A DNA stretch of 22,789 bases from an uncultured virus (IMG/VR IMGVR_UViG_3300030061_000857) (lineage: Duplodnaviria; Heunggongvirae; Uroviricota; Caudoviricetes; Crassvirales): IMG/VR virus record IMGVR_UViG_3300030061_000857, one strand, 5' to 3'. The notes beneath the pieces were generated by a model. It searched no databases. It was not told where the DNA came from and was given only the letters and a program-made list of their open reading frames with translations. Numbering within the stretch: position 1 is the stretch's first letter; each line of letters begins with the position of its first letter. Both the position numbers and the translations under genes were made by a program. This document shows positions 2 through 17,267 of the stretch, piece after piece.

Positions 2-1096
2 ATCACTGTGTTAATTATGAATACTGGAGCAATGGCAGGGCAAAGTAAAACAGTACAGTTTTTTGATAACTCTGGTAATTTACTTTACACAGATCCTACT
101 ACATATACTAATGCAAATAGTCCTAATCATCAATTTACTTCTACACTTTCTAATGTAGGTCCTGGAGTTTATTTAGCAGTTGTAACTGATAACTTTGGAT
201 GTGTAGAAAATATATATGGAACTGTAGGTAGTACTACAGCAAACTGTGGGTGTACAGATCCAAATGCATCTAACTACGACCCAACAGCAACTACAGACGA
301 CGGATCATGTTTATATCCAGGATGTATAGATCCTAATGCTTTAAACTATGATCCTAACGCATCAATAGACGATGGCTCGTGTGTATATCAAACAGTAGTA
401 AACCCTTGTATTCCTGGAAATACTAATTCATTAATTAGTTTATTACAAGCATGTATAGCTAAGAATGGTTTTACGTATTATAACAAATTAGTTACAGGAC
501 AAGCAGATGATTGTTCTATAATGAATGCTTGGAAAGTTATTTTAATAGAATATCTAGTAAGTAAAAGAGGAACAAAGTGTATATACAATTGTGCAGATTC
601 TGCAACTCCAAATGTATCTACAATTGGAACATGTGCTTCATTATGGACAACAGGAGGACCAGTAACAGGGCTTAATGATCAAGCGCATGCAGGATCTAGT
701 ATAGCAACAGGTGAAGGAACTACAATAACAGATCCTAGTTTATATTTTGTAGCATCAAATACTTTATATTTAGGAGATGTTATAAAAATGCCTAGTGGTC
801 TTATCTATCAAGTAGTTCCACCAACAACTAGTATTAGTGGTGCAGGACACAATCCTGAAACAGCTCAAGGAGCAAAATCTGGTGCTTGGCAACAATGTGT
901 ACCAGGTCTACAAGTAACTTCGTTTCCAGACAGTGTAAATTATTTAGATAATTTTAATACATTTGTAGCTAAGTTCTGTGTAGACTGTAATATAGTAGAT
1001 GAAAATGTGATTAGAAACGTAAAATCAACACCACCATCTAAAAGAGGTAGAAGTGGAAGATTAAGTATAGATGGTATTAACGGTTTAGAAATATAA
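2..1096 (+). CDS. 5'-truncated Cys-rich protein with an SprB-like repeat end and two GCxD repeats; probable virion (tail hub/decoration) protein
   Basis: Frame is open from base 2 (ATC ACT GTG...), so the real start probably lies upstream of the window. LSNVGPGVYLAVVTDNFGC (146-202) resembles the SprB repeat GTYTVTVTDANGC; two GCxDPNAxNYDPxAxxDDGSC repeats at 248-382; ends TAA 1096. Virion role inferred from context. Confidence 0.7.
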   Translation: MTVLIMNTGAMAGQSKTVQFFDNSGNLLYTDPTTYTNANSPNHQFTSTLSNVGPGVYLAVVTDNFGCVENIYGTVGSTTANCGCTDPNASNYDPTATTDDGSCLYPGCIDPNALNYDPNASIDDGSCVYQTVVNPCIPGNTNSLISLLQACIAKNGFTYYNKLVTGQADDCSIMNAWKVILIEYLVSKRGTKCIYNCADSATPNVSTIGTCASLWTTGGPVTGLNDQAHAGSSIATGEGTTITDPSLYFVASNTLYLGDVIKMPSGLIYQVVPPTTSISGAGHNPETAQGAKSGAWQQCVPGLQVTSFPDSVNYLDNFNTFVAKFCVDCNIVDENVIRNVKSTPPSKRGRSGRLSIDGINGLEI

Positions 1097-2988: not shown

Positions 2989-4047
2989 TTGAAGAAAAAA
3001 TTACTTACATTTATATTAATAGTTATTATAACTTCTTGTGTAGCACCAAAGAAGTGTTGTGGACAATTAGATCTTAAAAAAGCATTTAAGTTCTCAACTT
3101 TCTATGCATCTGTAAACGGAGGTACATCTTTATCAAATGAAGATGTATTCTCTGTTAATACAGGAATATTACAACAAGATGTTATTACTACACCTTATGA
3201 TTATAATCTATCTTTAGGAGTTAGAAAAATAGCTAGGTTTGGTTACGAGAATAGAGCAAATACGTTTTATGATGGTACAGAAACTAGTTGGTCAGACGGT
3301 GCTAATGTAGGTAAAGTATCTGGTTTAGAATTTTTATTTGAAGCTAATTATAAAAGACAGCAAGGTGTAGACTACTTAGATCAGCACCACTTTATTAGAT
3401 TTGTAGCAGATAATTATATTTTAAAAGGAGAATATTTAGAAGATGGTTTTGCAGATATTAAATACTTTGAGACATCTCAGAGATATAGATATAAAGCAGA
3501 TAATAAACTATCTTTTAATGTTGGACTTGTACAAAGATTATCAGAGCCTTATGGATATGATCCTTTAGCAGATTGGATGTTAGATAATGGTAATTTACAT
3601 TACACTTATTTAGCAATACAAGAAGGATATGCAATAGATGTATTTAATAGTGAATATAGAGATCCTCAAGGTAATATTGTTGCAACAAGTAAAGAAGTTT
3701 GGGAGGAAGTAGTAATCCCAAATGTATTATATGATTATTCAGAAAGAAAAAGAAACGAGCTAGAAAATACTATACAACACTCTGTAGTATTAGGATTTGA
3801 TTTTTATTATTATAAGAAAAACTTTTGGACTCACAGTTGGGCTAACTTAATGCCATATCATTTAGATAACGGTATATATTCTTACGAGAAATATAACGAC
3901 GGACAATGGTTAGACTATTCTGGAGGTTTAATATTTGGATATAAATACAATAAAAATCTTGGTACATTTATAGAAGGTAAATACAATAAGTATTGGAACA
4001 GAGAATGGTATGATTTTAAATTTGGAATTAATTATATAATATTTTAA
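2989..4047 (+). CDS. Exported putative outer-membrane beta-barrel protein (352 aa)
   Basis: TTG start; N-terminus MKKKLLTFILIVIITSC (basic + hydrophobic signal, Cys17 lipobox-like, alternative G|Q26 cleavage); many Tyr/Phe/Trp-rich alternating strands; ends WYDFKFGINYIIF with terminal Phe like a BamA beta-signal. Confidence 0.65.
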   Translation: MKKKLLTFILIVIITSCVAPKKCCGQLDLKKAFKFSTFYASVNGGTSLSNEDVFSVNTGILQQDVITTPYDYNLSLGVRKIARFGYENRANTFYDGTETSWSDGANVGKVSGLEFLFEANYKRQQGVDYLDQHHFIRFVADNYILKGEYLEDGFADIKYFETSQRYRYKADNKLSFNVGLVQRLSEPYGYDPLADWMLDNGNLHYTYLAIQEGYAIDVFNSEYRDPQGNIVATSKEVWEEVVIPNVLYDYSERKRNELENTIQHSVVLGFDFYYYKKNFWTHSWANLMPYHLDNGIYSYEKYNDGQWLDYSGGLIFGYKYNKNLGTFIEGKYNKYWNREWYDFKFGINYIIF

Positions 4048-4400
4048 TGTACACATACGTAATAACACTAGATAGAGTTGTAGATGGAGATACTATAGAT
4101 GCGATGATTGATCTAGGGTTTGATGTGCACGTTAAAAAAAGAATTAGATTTATGGGTATTAATACTCCTGAATCTAGAACTAGAGATTTAGAAGAAAAGA
4201 AAAGAGGTCTAGCTGCTAAAGCTAGAGTTGAGGAACTGTTAAATAAATGTTCTTGCATTACTTTAAAATCTCATGGCTCAGGTAAATTTGGTAGATGTTT
4301 GGGAGAACTTTTTATTGAATTAGAAAATGAAGCCGTAAACTTAAATCAATTATTAATTTCTGAAGGACATGCAACAGAGTACTTCGGAGGAAAACGTTAA
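4047..4400 (+). CDS. SNase/thermonuclease-family nuclease
   Basis: Motifs RVVDGDTI, IRFMGINTPE, GKFGRCLG, LNQLLISEGHA match the staphylococcal nuclease family; TAATG overlap with the upstream gene; no signal peptide. Confidence 0.9.
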   Translation: MYTYVITLDRVVDGDTIDAMIDLGFDVHVKKRIRFMGINTPESRTRDLEEKKRGLAAKARVEELLNKCSCITLKSHGSGKFGRCLGELFIELENEAVNLNQLLISEGHATEYFGGKR

Positions 4401-4403
4401 AAT

Positions 4404-4583
4404 ATGAATTGGATAAATAGCTGGAATGCTGGAAACAAAAAAGAAAAATATGAAATAAATTTTAGATTAGGTACACTAACTATTCTTGAAATTGCATTTT
4501 GTCCTTGTGAAATGTGTGAAAACAACGAAGCAAGCTGTGCAAAATTTAGATTTATGGTATTTAATCTTGGATTTGAAATATAG
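4404..4583 (+). CDS. Small hypothetical protein with four Cys (59 aa; not in ORF track)
   Basis: Hand translation MNWINSWNAGNKKEKYEINFRLGTLTILEIAFCPCEMCENNEASCAKFRFMVFNLGFEI*; fills the gap between 4400 and 4591 almost exactly; A at -3. Confidence 0.75.
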   Translation: MNWINSWNAGNKKEKYEINFRLGTLTILEIAFCPCEMCENNEASCAKFRFMVFNLGFEI

Positions 4584-4590
4584 TTGAATT

Positions 4591-4872
4591 ATGGCAAAAG
4601 AACTAAGCGAAGATACAGCAGTACAACTAAGTCTAAAAACATTAGGAGGGGTAGCCTTCTTGATAGCTACCTTAGTTGGTATGTGGTTTACATTGCAAGC
4701 AGATATAAACGAAGCAAAGGAACTACCGGTTCCTCCACCACCTGATGTAACTAGAATGGAATTTGATATGAAAGATCAAATGATTCGTAATACAATTATA
4801 ACTACACAGAAAGATGTAGAAGAAATAAAAACTACTCTTGAAAAAATAGAAGACAAACTATATAACAGATGA
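4591..4872 (+). CDS. Single-pass membrane protein with Pro linker and C-terminal coiled coil (93 aa)
   Basis: Hydrophobic TLGGVAFLIATLVGMWFTL, then PVPPPP, then heptad-like TQKDVEEIKTTLEKIEDKL; ATGA overlap with the next gene. Confidence 0.75.
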   Translation: MAKELSEDTAVQLSLKTLGGVAFLIATLVGMWFTLQADINEAKELPVPPPPDVTRMEFDMKDQMIRNTIITTQKDVEEIKTTLEKIEDKLYNR

Positions 4873-5219
4873 AAAAAATAGACATGTCAAAGGTTATTTA
4901 TGTTTTAATGATGATAATAGTATTTACTATATCACAAGCTTTTGGTCAAATAGTAGTAACAGAATTTAATGCTGAGTGGAATGCTGCTAACAAAGTTGAA
5001 TGGGTAGATAAATTATCTGATTGTGATATAGCAAAAGTTGATATTACAAAAGAAGTAGACTTACAGCAAAAACACAAAGTAGTTATAGTACCTACTATAA
5101 TTATATTTAAAGACGGAGAAGAAATAAAAAGATACCAAGCAGATCTTAGTTTTAAGATGCTTGCAACAAGAAAAGAGATACAAAACTTTATTAATGACCA
5201 AATAATGTCAGATTTTTAA
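4869..5219 (+). CDS. Exported thioredoxin-fold protein lacking the CxxC motif (116 aa)
   Basis: Signal-like VIYVLMMIIVFTISQAFG|Q; VVTEFNAEWNAANK aligns with Trx VDFWAEWCGPCK; AKVDI and VVIVPTIIIFKDGEEIKR (cis-Pro loop) are retained. Confidence 0.8.
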   Translation: MKKIDMSKVIYVLMMIIVFTISQAFGQIVVTEFNAEWNAANKVEWVDKLSDCDIAKVDITKEVDLQQKHKVVIVPTIIIFKDGEEIKRYQADLSFKMLATRKEIQNFINDQIMSDF

Positions 5220-5220
5220 A

Positions 5221-8200
5221 ATGAAAAAATTATTATTAATATTATTATTATTACCTTTTATAGGGTTAGGACAAAATACTTGGGTAAACTACCAAGTACA
5301 ATATGATTTTTATGCACCAGCAGAATCACACTTTTTTATGGTATCTGATGCTAATGGTGATACAGCTATGTTTCATCAACCAACTACTCCTTATGAGTTT
5401 TTAGATACTACAATATTTATAAACTCTGGTAGTTACACAGTATCATTAATTGATAGTTTTGGTGATGGATGGATTTCTAATCAACCAGCATTTTTTAGAA
5501 TGCGTAATTTATGTCAAGGATTAATAATAAACTGGGATCCAGTATTAGGTTCTTTTTATTTAAGAGACACTACTGTAAACATATTGCCTTGCGCACCACC
5601 AGTATATGGGTGTATGGACTCAAACGCTTTAAATTATGACCCGTTAGCTACAATAGATGACGGTAGTTGTACATATCCACCTTGTAATGGTATTATAAAC
5701 GATACAGCTTGGCAGATGTGTTGGGGGTCACAAGCAGCTATATCATGGGAATGGGAAACTCCTAATAATACTAACTGCGCTGTAATAGAGTTACATTATG
5801 GATCTGCAAATGGTTACAATATAACAATACCTGGTTTTTGGCCTAGTGGTGGTTGGAGTAACTTTGCTATAGGTGCAGGACCTGGACAAATGCCACCTAA
5901 TTGGAATGAAGAACATTATATGGTATTAGAGTTTGTTGATGGGACTTTATCAGACACAATGTTTTTTACACCTTATGCTTGTATACCAGGTTGTACAGAT
6001 CCAACACAACAATCTTATAATCCTTGGGCTACAATAGATGATGGCTCATGTGCAGGTACTACATGTGATACTGCAACAGAGTATCAAATTACAATGGAGA
6101 TTACACTTGACAACTGGCCAAATGAAACTTCATGGATAATGAATAGTGGTGGTATAATAGATCAAGCACCACAAGGTACTTATAACTTTAATGATATAGG
6201 ACAAACCTTTACTTACACTTTTTGTGTAGATCAAAATATAGGCTTTGAATTAATATTAAGTGATAGCTATGGTGATGGACTTGCTGGTTCTACATCTGGA
6301 GGATCATTAGATGGTAATGTAGTTATATATGATTGTAATGGTGATACTATATGGAGTTTACCTGATCCTAACTTTGGTAACGTAACTTATTCAGGACCAC
6401 AAAATGGTGTGCCTTGTAATACAACACCAGATATATATGGGTGTACAGATGATGATTATGTAGAATATGTTGATAGCGCAAACGTAGACGATGGTAGTTG
6501 TTTAACATTACACACTTACGGTTGTACTGATTCTGCAGCATTTAACTATAATCCAAACGCTACAATTATGGACTTAGTGCCTGATTGTAATTACACGTTA
6601 ATATTAGAAGATGACGCAGGTGATGGTTGGGGTAACTCATACTTAGGAGTATCACAAGGACAAATGTTATGGAACTTTACAATGGGACCTGGTGCTTATG
6701 CTGATACATTTAATTTAATATTAGACTCAGATCAGCCTGTAACAATATATTACTTTGAAATAGGTGGACCACAAACACCACCTGAAGAAGTACAATTCCA
6801 AACATGGCATAACTCTTTTAAACTTATAAATGCTAATGGTATTGTATTATTAGAAGAAGGCACTAATCCTTTTGCTAATAATGGTCAAGGTGCTTTACAA
6901 GAATTTGATAGTCCTTTCTGGCATACTTATTCTGCAGTACCTTATTGTGGTAATTACTGTATACCTACTATATTAGGTTGTATGGACAGTACAGCTTTTA
7001 ACTATGCAGATTCTGCTAACACAGATGACGGATCTTGTATACCTGTAATATTAGGATGTACTAATCCACTTGCATTTAACTACGACGCATTTGCAAATGT
7101 AGATGATAGTAGCTGTGTCACTACAATTGTAGGTTGTATGGATTCATTAGCATTTAATTACAATCCTTTTGCAAACGTTAATGATCCAGCATCATGTGTA
7201 CCTGTTATATATGGTTGTATGGATGACACTATGTTTAACTACAACCCAGCAGCAAATACACCTGACACATGTATACCAGTAGTATTTGGATGTACAGATG
7301 CATTAGCATTTAACTATGATAGTTTAGCTAACACTAATAATAACTCTTGTATACCATTTATATATGGTTGTACAAATCCTGCGGCATTAAATTATGATCC
7401 GCTAGCAAATACTGATGATTCAACATGTATAGGTGTAGTATATGGGTGTACTGATCCTACAATGTGGAATTATAATCAATTAGCTAATACAGACAATGGA
7501 TCCTGTATTCCTTTTATCTATGGATGTACAGACTCAACTATGTTTAACTATGATCCTTTGGCTAATACAGATAACAATACTTGCATACCTTTTATATACG
7601 GATGCACTAACCCTATAGCTTTAAACTTTGATCAGAATGCTAATACAGATGATTTTAGTTGCATACTTCCTATATACGGTTGTATGGATAGCACTGCATT
7701 TAATTATGATCCTTTAGCTAATGTAGATAATGGTAGTTGTGTACCAGTAATCTTAGGATGTACAAACCCAATAGCATTAAATTATGACCCTAATGCTAAC
7801 ACTGACGATTTTAGTTGTATATTACCAATCTACGGATGTACAGACAGCACAATGTTTAATTACGATCCGTTAGCAAATGTAGACAATGGCACATGTATAC
7901 CATACATATATGGATGTACTAATCCAGTAGCACTTAATTATGACCCAAATGCAAACACAGATGACTTCTCTTGTATATTACCTATATACGGTTGTACAGA
8001 TAGTACTATGTTTAATTATAACCCACTAGCAAATGTTGATAACGGAAGTTGTATTCCTTTTATATACGGTTGTACTAATCCTAATAGTATCAACTATGAT
8101 CCAATGGCTAATACTGAGGATTTTAGCTGCATTCCTTTTATTTATGGGTGCACTGATTCTACAGCTCTTAATTATGACTCATTGGCTAACACAGATAATG

Positions 8201-8589
8201 GCTCATGTATTACAGCGATTGAAGGATGCATGGATGCAAATGCTTTTAACTATGATGCGTTTGCTAATGTAAATGATTCTGCATCTTGTTTATACGATGC
8301 ACAATGTATTACAGGTCCAGGTAATCCTTACTGGTTAAACGATCCTTGTTATGCTTGGGTAATAGATGTAGATGAATATTGTTGTAATAATGCATGGGAC
8401 AATATATGTCAATTAACATACGATCATTGTAATGATAATTGGTCAGGACCTCTACCTAAAAGAACAGACGCAAAATTAATAGGAGTTACAGATTTATTAG
8501 GTAAGCCTGTAAATAAAATTAAAAATCAGCTTTTATTATATATGTATGATGATGGAAGCGTAAACAGAAAAATAATAATTAAAAAATAA
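5221..8589 (+). CDS. Large secreted Cys-repeat protein with T9SS-like C-terminal domain (1122 aa)
   Basis: Signal peptide MKKLLLILLLLPFIGLG|Q; three DxxGDG modules; 21 GC[TM][DN]...NY...A...C repeats; DEYCCNNAWD module; basic tail KLIGVTDLLGKPVNKIKNQLLLYMYDDGSVNRKIIIKK resembling flavobacterial T9SS CTDs. Confidence 0.75.
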   Translation: MKKLLLILLLLPFIGLGQNTWVNYQVQYDFYAPAESHFFMVSDANGDTAMFHQPTTPYEFLDTTIFINSGSYTVSLIDSFGDGWISNQPAFFRMRNLCQGLIINWDPVLGSFYLRDTTVNILPCAPPVYGCMDSNALNYDPLATIDDGSCTYPPCNGIINDTAWQMCWGSQAAISWEWETPNNTNCAVIELHYGSANGYNITIPGFWPSGGWSNFAIGAGPGQMPPNWNEEHYMVLEFVDGTLSDTMFFTPYACIPGCTDPTQQSYNPWATIDDGSCAGTTCDTATEYQITMEITLDNWPNETSWIMNSGGIIDQAPQGTYNFNDIGQTFTYTFCVDQNIGFELILSDSYGDGLAGSTSGGSLDGNVVIYDCNGDTIWSLPDPNFGNVTYSGPQNGVPCNTTPDIYGCTDDDYVEYVDSANVDDGSCLTLHTYGCTDSAAFNYNPNATIMDLVPDCNYTLILEDDAGDGWGNSYLGVSQGQMLWNFTMGPGAYADTFNLILDSDQPVTIYYFEIGGPQTPPEEVQFQTWHNSFKLINANGIVLLEEGTNPFANNGQGALQEFDSPFWHTYSAVPYCGNYCIPTILGCMDSTAFNYADSANTDDGSCIPVILGCTNPLAFNYDAFANVDDSSCVTTIVGCMDSLAFNYNPFANVNDPASCVPVIYGCMDDTMFNYNPAANTPDTCIPVVFGCTDALAFNYDSLANTNNNSCIPFIYGCTNPAALNYDPLANTDDSTCIGVVYGCTDPTMWNYNQLANTDNGSCIPFIYGCTDSTMFNYDPLANTDNNTCIPFIYGCTNPIALNFDQNANTDDFSCILPIYGCMDSTAFNYDPLANVDNGSCVPVILGCTNPIALNYDPNANTDDFSCILPIYGCTDSTMFNYDPLANVDNGTCIPYIYGCTNPVALNYDPNANTDDFSCILPIYGCTDSTMFNYNPLANVDNGSCIPFIYGCTNPNSINYDPMANTEDFSCIPFIYGCTDSTALNYDSLANTDNGSCITAIEGCMDANAFNYDAFANVNDSASCLYDAQCITGPGNPYWLNDPCYAWVIDVDEYCCNNAWDNICQLTYDHCNDNWSGPLPKRTDAKLIGVTDLLGKPVNKIKNQLLLYMYDDGSVNRKIIIKK
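6973..8289 (+). repeat. Tandem array of 17 ~26-aa (~78-nt) two-Cys repeats
   Basis: Counted from the translation; consensus YGCT[DN]xxAxNYDPxANxDxxSCIPxI; four more dispersed copies lie upstream in the same ORF. Confidence 0.95.
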
Positions 8590-8966: not shown

Positions 8967-9428
8967 ATGAAACTACAAGTATTAAGGTTTAGCAGTGAAT
9001 CAGATTCAACTAATGGCTTATTACTAGATGTTACAGATGGTGTAAATTTTCTTGCATATACTTTAGAAGATGAATATAGAAAACACAAGAGAAGTAAAGA
9101 AACAAGAATACCTGCTGGAACATATGAAATAAAATTAAGAAATGAAGGGGGATTCCACCAAAGGTATAGTAAGAAATATTCTAGTATCCATAGGGGTATG
9201 CTGCATATTATTGATGTACCTGGTTTTGAGTACATTCTCATTCATGTTGGCAATTCTGATGAGCATACTGCAGGCTGTTTACTTGTGGGTGATAGTCAAG
9301 AAAATAACCAAATAAATAAAAATGGTTTTATAGGAAGCTCGGGTAATGCTTACAAAAGAATATACCCTTTAATAGCAAAAGCAATAGAAAAAGAAAAAGT
9401 AACAATACAATATATAGACTTAGATTAA
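8967..9428 (+). CDS. DUF5675-family protein, putative endolysin/peptidoglycan peptidase
   Basis: AYTLED, TRIPAGTYEI, DVPGFEYILIHVGN, HTAGCLLVG match the DUF5675 signature, with an H...GC pair as in L,D-transpeptidase-like folds. Confidence 0.85.
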   Translation: MKLQVLRFSSESDSTNGLLLDVTDGVNFLAYTLEDEYRKHKRSKETRIPAGTYEIKLRNEGGFHQRYSKKYSSIHRGMLHIIDVPGFEYILIHVGNSDEHTAGCLLVGDSQENNQINKNGFIGSSGNAYKRIYPLIAKAIEKEKVTIQYIDLD

Positions 9429-15020: not shown

Positions 15021-15394
15021 AACTAAAAGAATATATACATAAAAATTTAACAGGTAATACCGCTCAAACTTTATTTAAGAATGATAAAAATAAAGATATT
15101 TCTATAACAGGTATGACGTTATCTAATGTACATGCTACTGATACTGTTTATGTAGATTTATTTTTAAGAGAAAAATTATATATACGTCAAAATCCTATAA
15201 AAAATTGGGACTTAAATACTAATACTTATAGAGATTATTACATAATGAAAAAAATAGAAATTACAAATGAAAATACTTTAATATTAGAACCAAGAGAAGT
15301 TGACTATGACTCAAGAAAGTATGACCTAATGGTACAACTATCTTCTGCAGATAGTAAAGTAGATTTAATGATGAACTTTAGAAAAGAATACTAA
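15017..15394 (+). CDS. Hypothetical beta-rich protein (125 aa; start revised from 14990)
   Basis: ATGA overlap at 15017-15020 with the upstream stop gives MKLKEYIHKN...; LSNVHATDTVYVDLFL and YYIMKKIEI strands. Confidence 0.65.
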   Translation: MKLKEYIHKNLTGNTAQTLFKNDKNKDISITGMTLSNVHATDTVYVDLFLREKLYIRQNPIKNWDLNTNTYRDYYIMKKIEITNENTLILEPREVDYDSRKYDLMVQLSSADSKVDLMMNFRKEY

Positions 15395-15606
15395 TGGAAA
15401 TATTTAAAGATAATAATAACTGGAATGAAAAATCAATAATAGGAGCTGTAGCATTTATAATAATGTGTATGGTTATGGTGTTAGATTTATTAACAGGATG
15501 GCTAGGCAGAGACTTAGCAATTAATGAGTTTGTGTATGACTCTTTTGTATTAGTAGTACTAGGATGTTTTGGTATAGCTGGACTAGAAAAATTTGCTAAG
15601 AAATAA
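15394..15606 (+). CDS. Two-TM small membrane protein, holin/antiholin-like (70 aa)
   Basis: Two hydrophobic segments (IIGAVAFIIMCMVMVLDLL; FVLVVLGCFGIAGL), basic C-terminus, TAATG-coupled to the holin. Confidence 0.6.
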   Translation: MEIFKDNNNWNEKSIIGAVAFIIMCMVMVLDLLTGWLGRDLAINEFVYDSFVLVVLGCFGIAGLEKFAKK

Positions 15607-15998
15607 TGGGAGTTCTAGGAAAAATATTTAGTGCAGGTGCTGGTAAACTAGTAGAGAATGTAGGAGGAGTATTAGATAATCTAACTACAACCAAAGAAGA
15701 AAAACTAGAAGCACAAAGAAAAATAAAAGAAATAATAGCTAACTATGAGGTAGAGATGGAAAAGAATGTTACTGATAGATGGAATGCTGATATGAACAGT
15801 GACTCATGGTTAAGTAAGAATGTAAGACCTATGGTTTTAATATTTTTAGTAGTATGTACAGTATTACTTATATTTATTGACGCAGGTCATTTAAAATTTA
15901 ATGTAAAAGAATCATATGTAGATCTTTTACAGATAGTTCTAATAACAGTGATTGGTGCCTACTTTGGTGGAAGGTCACTAGAAAAAAGAAAAAAATAA
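15606..15998 (+). CDS. Holin, GTA-type 3TM holin family (130 aa)
   Basis: VGGVLDNLTTTKEEKL, RWNADMNSDSWLSKNVRP, two C-terminal hydrophobic helices, GAYFGGRSLEK. Confidence 0.85.
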   Translation: MGVLGKIFSAGAGKLVENVGGVLDNLTTTKEEKLEAQRKIKEIIANYEVEMEKNVTDRWNADMNSDSWLSKNVRPMVLIFLVVCTVLLIFIDAGHLKFNVKESYVDLLQIVLITVIGAYFGGRSLEKRKK

Positions 15999-16703: not shown

Positions 16704-17267
16704 ATGAGCAAAGGAACACATAAAACAAAAGACGGTAGAACAGCCAAAAAAGGTTTATACTACTATATGAATCGTGCTAAAAAAAGAGGCACGTCAAAAC
16801 CTGGTAAAGGTACAGTAACTGACGAAGCTTTAGCAAGATCTAAGAAGACTGCTAAAAAAGCAATGATGGGAGGTAAAAAAGAAATGATGTATAAAGAAGG
16901 AGGTAAGTTTCCTGATATGAATAATGATGACAAAATTACTCAGGCAGATATATATCTAAGAAAAAAAGAAAAAGGTACTATAGCAAAGAAAGGAGGTGCT
17001 AAGAAAAAGAAAGCAATGATGTACAAGAAAGGAGGAATGAAGCAACAAGCTGCTATTGCAATCAAAATGAAAGAAGAAGGTAAAATGCCTAAAGATAAAA
17101 TGGGTATGGGAGGTAAGAAGAAAATGATGAAAGATGGCGGTAAGAAAAAAATGTACGGAGGTATGATGAAAAAGAAAAAGATGATGGGAGGTAAGAAAAA
17201 GATGATGTACGAAACAGGAGGATTTCTTGAGCCAGGTATTCCAAATCTTGACGATTGTTGTAACTAG
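16704..17267 (+). CDS. Highly basic Lys/Met/Gly low-complexity protein with repeated xxGG motifs (187 aa)
   Basis: Nine GG motifs in KKKMMxGG-like context, one EF-hand-like loop DMNNDDKITQAD, C-terminal YETGGFLEP; A-rich leader. Confidence 0.75.
   Translation: MSKGTHKTKDGRTAKKGLYYYMNRAKKRGTSKPGKGTVTDEALARSKKTAKKAMMGGKKEMMYKEGGKFPDMNNDDKITQADIYLRKKEKGTIAKKGGAKKKKAMMYKKGGMKQQAAIAIKMKEEGKMPKDKMGMGGKKKMMKDGGKKKMYGGMMKKKKMMGGKKKMMYETGGFLEPGIPNLDDCCN

Follow-up and report, generated by a model that had tools for sequence, protein, structure and literature searches.

The principal finding of this work is that three of six contiguous genes found at positions 2989..8589 of a 22,789-nucleotide (nt) stretch of an uncultured Crassvirales virus (IMG/VR record IMGVR_UViG_3300030061_000857; the whole stretch is hereafter the window) constitute a conserved core, which marine phages of crAss-like, siphovirus-like and T4-like kind share and which is hardly ever found in cells. 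The core genes encode an outer-membrane beta-barrel, a single-pass transmembrane (TM) protein and a secreted protein of thioredoxin fold (Trx). A large secreted repeat protein (the cargo) occupies a swappable slot beside them, and a nuclease and a 59-amino-acid (59-aa) protein are passengers. As a tentative first choice among several readings, we suggest that the trio may form a trans-envelope complex that helps to breach the outer membrane at lysis, a spanin-like device built from other parts. The gene context points to the lysis stage at least as much as to the remodelling of the infected-cell surface, the role which the initial annotation of this DNA had proposed for all six genes together.

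The limits of the unit were taken from other genomes, since contiguity in the window marks none: the six open reading frames (ORFs) are spaced by -1, 3, 7, -4 and 1 nt, and the gaps of the flanking genes are equally tight (1, 9 and 2 nt). A barrel search of IMG/VR gave 439 relatives. Profile searches of the 80 closest barrel loci were positive for the TM protein in 73 cases, for Trx in 70, for the cysteine-rich domain of the cargo in 57, for the nuclease in 24 and for the 59-aa protein in 23, and the corresponding figures for 80 loci retrieved with a distant-barrel alignment were 74, 72, 0, 5 and 24. The reciprocal search, anchored on the TM protein, added 78 new loci with the barrel in 73 and Trx in 77, and the barrel was present in all 36 loci of one distant Trx clade. 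Where the TM protein and Trx occurred together, the former was encoded directly upstream of the latter in 143 of 145 loci. After removal of redundant and truncated loci, 124 trio loci remained, with a cargo gene in 107, the nuclease in 26 and the 59-aa gene in 33; 17 had no cargo cluster of any kind, and one clade was entirely cargo-less (0/36 loci). The position of the 59-aa gene varies among loci, and in some genomes these accompanying genes lie far from the trio (both of them in G415, the nuclease in G407; G and L numbers denote our genomes and loci). Their low frequency and their location elsewhere in such genomes are the reasons for regarding the nuclease and the 59-aa gene as passengers. 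The earlier expectation that the genes co-occur in other genomes was thus borne out for the trio, and the idea of a six-gene system is disfavoured, given two infrequent members and a third that is replaceable or absent.

Some loci depart from this arrangement. L255 carries two barrel genes, one ahead of the TM gene and the other past the cargo. Extra secreted proteins lie between Trx and cargo in L005:12114-13118 and L518:9220-9753, one of them with a weak Omp28 match. A second small barrel-like protein (139 aa, signal-bearing, weak DUF5777 match) was seen in L103:10764-11183 and 12 other loci, often adjoining a 74-aa two-helix membrane gene, and in L183:11738-12046 a gene judged ferredoxin-like by its Cys motifs separates barrel and holin.

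The AlphaFold2 model of the barrel (81 sequences; predicted local distance difference test score 86.7) has 12 membrane strands, the faces of which alternate as expected of a membrane barrel. The Foldseek and VIA-align matches were outer-membrane barrels, in agreement with the fold assigned initially, and there was no clear winner among them. NanC was the best Foldseek match (E 1e-5, TM-score 0.33/0.50, root-mean-square deviation (rmsd) 9.7; Z 7.9); Omp33, AIDA-I, OpcA, LpxR and OMPLA gave Z 9-10 (LpxR 9.5, OMPLA 9.1), and a chain of a type IX secretion system (T9SS) complex, 8gl6_F, ranked 43rd in Foldseek (E 0.014). The barrel had no sequence match in Pfam (81 members), PHROGs, NCBIfam or the PDB, and of the 30 ESM Atlas clusters nearest to it none is named and the three displayed are viral. 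Nine inward charged residues (R79, E114, R137, K146, R165, R167, R183, H282 and E329) are 93-100% conserved over 215 barrel rows, and the C-terminal strand reads GxxYx[FILV] in 211 of 214. The model also contains a conserved loop (residues 81-111), probably on the periplasmic side, and a 75-residue acidic insert (residues 186-260), probably extracellular, when strands are counted from a periplasmic N-terminus. The N-terminus is a predicted signal peptide and also lipobox-like. A lipobox-like N-terminal piece ending in PKKCC occurs in 50 of 214 barrels (window 2989-3063), in one Trx (L081:2915) and in one cargo (G409:66911-69388), and appears to be a signal peptide that moves between genes.

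In the TM protein of the window (TM93), hydropathy and alignment indicate one TM segment at residues 17-35 after Lys, a short helix, a Pro linker and a coiled-coil pattern; the predicted topology is N-in/C-out in the inner membrane. The periplasmic part would comprise about 58 residues, and none of 214 TM proteins has a Cys in its last 58 residues. All ESM Atlas matches of the TM protein were viral and none belonged to a named family. Two homologues (L089:9092-9766 and L090:6852-7478) bear an N-terminal extension of 110-130 residues with a proline run and two motifs, which we take to resemble MshEN, and these extensions had no Pfam match. A second TM-like paralogue (91-112 aa, phrog_20984) often stands directly past Trx or directly ahead of the endolysin (L400:6663-7001, L393, L396, L397, L414, L129 and L183:10396-10671).

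Trx has a thioredoxin fold according to AlphaFold2 and Foldseek and keeps the cis-Pro motif, with P75 and T76 invariant. The absence of CxxC noted at first in the window's protein extends to the family: WCxxC was found in 0 of 214 homologues and WNxxN in 176. Since WNxxN replaces WCxxC, which never occurs, Trx cannot work as a normal oxidoreductase. A Gln is conserved past the signal. Of 289 rows whose locus contains a barrel, a redundant set, 288 end in an aromatic C-terminal tail, which none of the 11 rows of one barrel-less clade has; these 11 are likewise redundant and probably reflect one evolutionary event. The barrel was not found in four searched records of this clade (39-78% complete), and the eight rows with a tail but no barrel belong to loci either short or truncated close to the gene. 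In the tail-less clade TM-Trx stands ahead of endolysin and holin (L361, L367, L376-L379, L381, L400 and L414). A coupling analysis of TM and Trx (233 rows, effective depth 92) ranked V53-W37, M64-L93 and M64-F95 highest, and in Trx these pairs fall in the region that forms the substrate groove of thioredoxins. Pairs between the groove and the periplasmic part of the TM protein made up 6 of the top 20, compared with 0-5 in 25 neighbour-swapped controls, and the top score was not above the controls, so that the coupling signal at the groove may be called weak. Barrel-Trx and barrel-TM couplings gave no consistent patch in a three-protein analysis (effective depth 88). A complex prediction for the barrel, three periplasmic TM segments and Trx scored 0.27 against a mark of 0.32 and was counted neither way.

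The link of the trio with lysis genes is not general. Of the 124 trio loci, 31 have a supported holin or endolysin within 1 kb of Trx, 40 within 2 kb and 66 within 4 kb; among the cargo-less trio loci, 13 of 17 have a holin or endolysin within 2 kb. TM-Trx or the whole trio is found directly ahead of endolysin and holin in unrelated phages, for instance in G418 (30 kb, terminal repeats), with the order barrel, cargo, small membrane gene, TM, Trx, M15 endolysin and holin. The 79 loci anchored on the M15 endolysin, headed by 23 closely related to the query, had a complete trio in 36 cases, two members in 12, one in 4 and none in 27. Syntenic pairs (for example L361 and L371) revealed that the slot ahead of the endolysin holds, as alternatives, TM-Trx or X77, a gene of 72-85 aa for a protein with a single TM segment and a coiled coil and a weak match to a PHROG holin (E 4e-4). 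Where the upstream DNA was long enough (64 loci), Trx occurred with the barrel in 35 and without it in 9, X77 alone in 12 and neither in 8; TM-Trx (44/64) and X77 (12/64) were never both in this slot. X77 is present and Trx absent in G431 (94% complete) and G425 (100%), and one near-complete record of the "neither" class carries the trio elsewhere. X77 was seen in L371:6580-6813, L383, L390, L370, L406 and L117, with L406 also having a truncated TM gene. In 6 of 11 whole records with a supported lysis gene, Trx is nearer to it than at least 91% of genome positions; the other 5, G000 among them, miss this closeness, and the null ignores the late-gene status of all these genes. A 3-TM holin was present in 11 of 12 genomes examined. 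Loci anchored on the window's own holin had the trio in only 4 of 80, many of these loci being short; in 3 of 5 longer records the trio lies about 35 kb from this holin, and two of the three have an endolysin 4-5 kb from Trx.

Table 1. Features of the window (positions are those of the 22,789-nt stretch).
Feature	Positions	Strand	Remarks
Barrel gene	2989..4047	+	352 aa, TTG start
SNase-family nuclease gene	4047..4400	+	117 aa; PF00565 E 1.5e-9, phrog_452; no export signal
59-aa gene	4404..4583	+	no family match
TM93 gene	4591..4872	+	93 aa, single-pass membrane protein
Trx gene	4869..5219	+	116 aa, secreted thioredoxin fold; PF00085 E 1e-7
Cargo gene	5221..8589	+	1122-aa secreted repeat protein
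Run of 17 Cys repeats inside cargo	6976..8304	+	period ~26 residues
Short C-terminal tail of cargo	8455..8589	+	putative host-type sorting tag
DUF5675 protein, candidate endolysin	8967..9428	+	PF18925 E 1e-25; two genes past cargo
70-aa two-helix membrane protein and 3-TM holin	15394..15998	+	phrog_3427 holin E 5e-30

We therefore hypothesize, because of the Rz-like topology of the TM protein, the place before endolysin and holin, the exchange with X77 and the loss of the Trx tail together with the barrel, that the trio acts at lysis. Barrel, TM protein and Trx would be the functional unit, made late from the structural/lysis transcript. The TM protein would be anchored in the inner membrane and extend its coiled coil into the periplasm, where Trx, no longer redox-active, could bind it at about residues 49-64 through the old substrate groove, and the C-terminal tail of Trx could bind the barrel, so that a barrel-Trx-TM link would join both membranes. 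After holin and endolysin have acted, this bridge might help to open the outer membrane, possibly with the barrel in place of a lipoprotein. The large repeat protein would be a separate, exchangeable passenger exported by the T9SS of the host.

Several observations weigh against this proposal. No lysis-type gene, even from a broad list, lies within 4 kb of Trx in 42 of the 124 loci, and only the 40 mentioned above have a supported one within 2 kb. A distance of about 25 kb separates the trio from endolysin and holin in G432, and in the window the holin is 10.4 kb downstream of Trx. G413 carries both X77 and the trio, and the alignment of the TM protein with X77 covers only the membrane segment (probability 52%). 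The periplasmic part of the TM protein is short and has no Cys, the near-invariant polar lumen and the 75-residue surface insert of the barrel exceed the needs of an anchor, and one clade keeps TM-Trx without the barrel. Neither does a scan for lipoboxes help: small lipoproteins were seen in 3 of 11 near-complete trio records and in none of the other 8, and trio-less lysis loci also lack them (26/27 and 73/76), so that the scan, which was crude and run without a positive control, does not discriminate. Mutual exclusion between the trio and canonical spanins is for this reason not supportable. In G000 the sole lipobox match was the barrel's own N-terminus. A small proline-rich lipoprotein, an o-spanin-like candidate, adjoins the barrel gene in L319:6778-6963 (G420) and L349:4194.

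The cargo deserves separate treatment. The window's protein has 60 Cys, 21 GC[TM][DN] repeats, a Cys-rich domain before its tail and an N-terminal signal peptide predicted from hydropathy and conserved N-termini. It had been announced as T9SS cargo; it carries a host secretion-type tail and does not match the TIGR04183 T9SS type A model. This model matched 9 of 16 hand-picked cargo homologues, in which the canonical domain takes the position of the tail. A model built on the cargo tail gave matches in 61 of the 151 genomes of Flavobacteriales searched, as many as 47 in one genome, and 60 of the 61 genomes measure 0.8-2.3 Mb. All 14 ORFs inspected had the match no more than 2 residues from their C-terminus, 12 of them with a signal-like N-terminus by eye, and SprA was present in 5 of 5 tail-bearing genomes tested. 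The many copies, the C-terminal place and SprA in the tested genomes indicate that the tail is a host tag, and most likely a short T9SS sorting signal. In small marine Flavobacteriales with SprA there is thus a 40-residue C-terminal tag (L496-L509) overlooked by TIGR04183, which is probably an undescribed short sorting signal of this system. Distant loci contain two other, shorter families of secreted cargo with similar tails (41 and 14 loci); the three families are mutually exclusive and never two occur in one locus. A scan for tail motifs in two 100%-complete records of the cargo-less clade gave no candidate. Upstream in the window, a 1560-aa protein without signal peptide (window 2-1096; G000 21443-26125) shares the Cys repeat of the cargo; TIGR04183 matches it weakly at an internal site (E 0.002).

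Other interpretations have to be considered, and we rank them, behind a bridge at lysis, in the order surface remodelling, lysis timing, and channel or lipid enzyme. Alteration of the infected-cell surface by barrel and T9SS cargo (superinfection exclusion, receptor masking, adhesion or grazer avoidance), with TM-Trx helping to fold, hold or anchor these two (the cargo having 60 Cys), seems to us somewhat unlikely. The cargo in 107 of 124 trio loci, its three families that never meet in one locus, the frequent adjacency of barrel and cargo and the large variable insert of the barrel, predicted to be extracellular, are all consistent with it, and precedents exist in lambda Lom, which blocks LamB (cited in the main text of bioRxiv 10.64898/2026.10.24.761521), and in the T9SS cargo of Cryophage as presented in PMC7468147. 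However, 17 of 124 trio loci and all 36 loci of one clade, the two 100%-complete records included, dispense with cargo, the cargo already bears what appears to be a host export tag, and the genes lie within the late block, with no terminator-like site on the + strand and no excess of promoter-like sites (32 against 44 expected by chance). A switch of lysis timing is the less probable reading of the two. It is modelled on lysis inhibition by T and RI of phage T4, with the TM protein as single-pass holin or regulator, Trx as antiholin-like partner in the periplasm and the barrel as outer-membrane sensor or channel for an outside signal. The tightness of the TM-Trx pair, its persistence without the barrel and its exchange with a holin-like gene would suit such a switch, as would an arginine-rich lumen fit for an anionic ligand and the MshEN-resembling motif in two TM homologues; yet a 3-TM holin is already there in 11 of 12 genomes, that resemblance comes without a Pfam match and no family match ties the TM protein to holins.

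It appears improbable that the barrel is instead a channel for an anionic solute (KdgM/NanC-like) or an enzyme acting on lipid A or phospholipid (LpxR/OMPLA-like), gated or positioned by TM-Trx. NanC as best Foldseek match, the Z scores of LpxR and OMPLA, the invariant inward Arg with H282 and E329, and one solitary cellular barrel among housekeeping genes argue for it, but many unrelated barrels match equally well (Z 8-10, rmsd 4.5-7) and the likeness concerns the fold only, no transport genes recur nearby, and the conserved loop 81-111 may plug the pore. Least of all do we credit the six genes, nuclease and 59-aa protein included, as one system, or their products as virion parts, a disfavoured reading to which we assign very little probability: the tight spacing in G000 and the cargo repeat in the signal-less upstream protein speak for it, and against it stand the rarity of the nuclease and the 59-aa gene and their separate location in some genomes, conserved signal peptides, the membrane-barrel fold, and the presence of the trio in phages with unrelated virion genes.

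Comparison with known systems places the trio close to, and outside of, the spanins. Like the two-component spanins of lambda (Rz/Rz1), it has a predicted type II inner-membrane TM protein, the periplasmic part of which comprises two helices joined by a linker; the next gene encodes another exported protein, and in many loci the trio has a place in the lysis cassette. The Rz layout outlined in the accessible text of PMC6139136 is N-in/C-out with two coiled coils and a linker, and the same text names an outer-membrane protein (OMP) as possible o-spanin substitute and puts the surveyed phage genomes without recognisable spanin at about 13%. Unlike spanins, the trio has no small outer-membrane lipoprotein, the partner behind the TM protein is of thioredoxin fold, a 12-stranded barrel is added, the TM protein is short in the periplasm and without Cys there, and linkage to lysis genes is partial. 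Because lipoprotein and cysteines are missing, the trio is not a member of the spanins and at best works like one. With T4 holin T and antiholin RI it would share a single-pass membrane protein, predicted to be N-in/C-out, and a secreted partner, and it differs in the lack of any sequence or family match, the inclusion of a barrel and the presence of a separate 3-TM holin. Trx retains the fold and the cis-Pro loop of redox-active thioredoxins and has lost their WCxxC.

As to the barrel, KdgM/NanC porins, LpxR and OMPLA also have 12 strands and a polar basic lumen; identity is only 5-14%, TM-scores are low, there is no Pfam match, and the trio barrel has in addition a large extracellular insert and a long periplasm-side loop, as modelled. 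The PorV/PorP barrels of the T9SS have 14 strands, in contrast to the 12 of our model. Lambda Lom, the 1,603 OMPs of huge phages reported in bioRxiv 10.64898/2026.10.24.761521 and cyanophage PF24653 resemble it as signal-bearing phage barrels aimed at the host outer membrane. Unlike Lom, which is 8-stranded according to that preprint, and the OMPs of huge phages, the trio barrel has 12 strands and no close host homologue, belongs to phages of 30-120 kb and is tied to a TM protein and Trx. The main text of the preprint makes no mention of T9SS, thioredoxin or porin, and its supplements may list the barrel. The T9SS cargo of Cryophage (PMC7468147) and of crAss-like contigs (PMC6949934) has, like ours, a signal peptide, a C-terminal tag of T9SS type and variability among relatives. 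Our tag differs, as far as these accounts go, in being short, lineage-specific and overlooked by TIGR04183, the body in being a Cys-repeat stalk, and the companions in being barrel, TM protein and Trx, partners that the two accounts do not describe.

The record that contains the window (G000) is a single virus contig of 69.5 kb, the tail ring proteins of which match the crAss ring families PF24228 and PF25702. Among deposited phages, gut crAss-like and Flavobacterium Fpv phages come nearest, with about 30% identity, and close relatives originate from seawater. All window genes lie on the + strand in a structural block, the six contiguous ORFs being as first described. The four export or membrane signals noted at the outset were recovered by hydropathy in the barrel, TM93, Trx and the cargo (19-residue Kyte-Doolittle maxima 1.84-2.15), and no hydrophobic export or TM segment was found in the nuclease (0.73) or the 59-aa protein (1.17); the assignment of products to several envelope layers stands for barrel, TM protein, Trx and tagged cargo. 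The placing of the six genes between fibre genes needs to be amended: fibre genes do exist, one to three genes further out, and the direct neighbours are a 136-aa ORF, a 121-aa ORF and the DUF5675 protein, a family treated in the text of bioRxiv 10.64898/2026.04.11.717860 as C82-like candidate lysin. A 187-aa Lys/Met/Gly-rich protein without family match stands amid the tail ring genes (window 16704-17267). Metatranscriptome contigs span parts of the region and structural genes, mostly at 90-95% identity; they may derive from DNA and carry no information on strand, level or timing.

The barrel forms 3,616 clusters at 90% identity, and the distant-barrel alignment gave at least 589 IMG/VR matches. 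Genes neighbouring the trio include crAss-like genes, T4-like replication genes, siphovirus-type portal and tape-measure genes and an SU10-type capsid gene. A search of 50,697 deposited phage records returned no barrel, and deposited phages yielded a single Trx match, weak and partial. GTDB held 8 loci, 7 of them among phage-type genes in metagenome-assembled genomes (MAGs) of unrelated taxa and one a contig-end fragment; in the order of a Flavobacteriales MAG the barrel occurred in 2 of 401 genomes and the TM protein in 4 of 301. A cellular origin was rejected on these grounds. One of the barrels in that order, solitary and diverged in a cellular genome (L170:1366-2580), lies between glycosyltransferase-like, monooxygenase-like and HAD-like genes and may have been taken up from a phage. 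T9SS cargo and barrels of phages have each been reported on their own, and the trio is undescribed in the literature searched, in which no account of this gene set was found and which did not cover subscription papers or the bioRxiv supplements.

The trio is abundant, its barrel is absent from deposited phage records, and it bears on the question of how spanin-less phages cross the outer membrane. We give slightly less than an even chance to the view that it represents a third and hitherto undescribed design for outer-membrane disruption or lysis control, in which a thioredoxin without cysteines would serve as adaptor joining coiled coil and barrel, in a cassette spread among marine phages that are unrelated to one another and infect hosts in whose phages ordinary spanins are not seen. 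The short T9SS-type tail, a kind of tag that current models overlook, marks small-genome marine Flavobacteriales as likely hosts. Should the trio turn out to be a surface or sensing system instead, it would still amount to a trans-envelope complex made by a phage, in which the barrel family is new and the thioredoxin has been put to another use.

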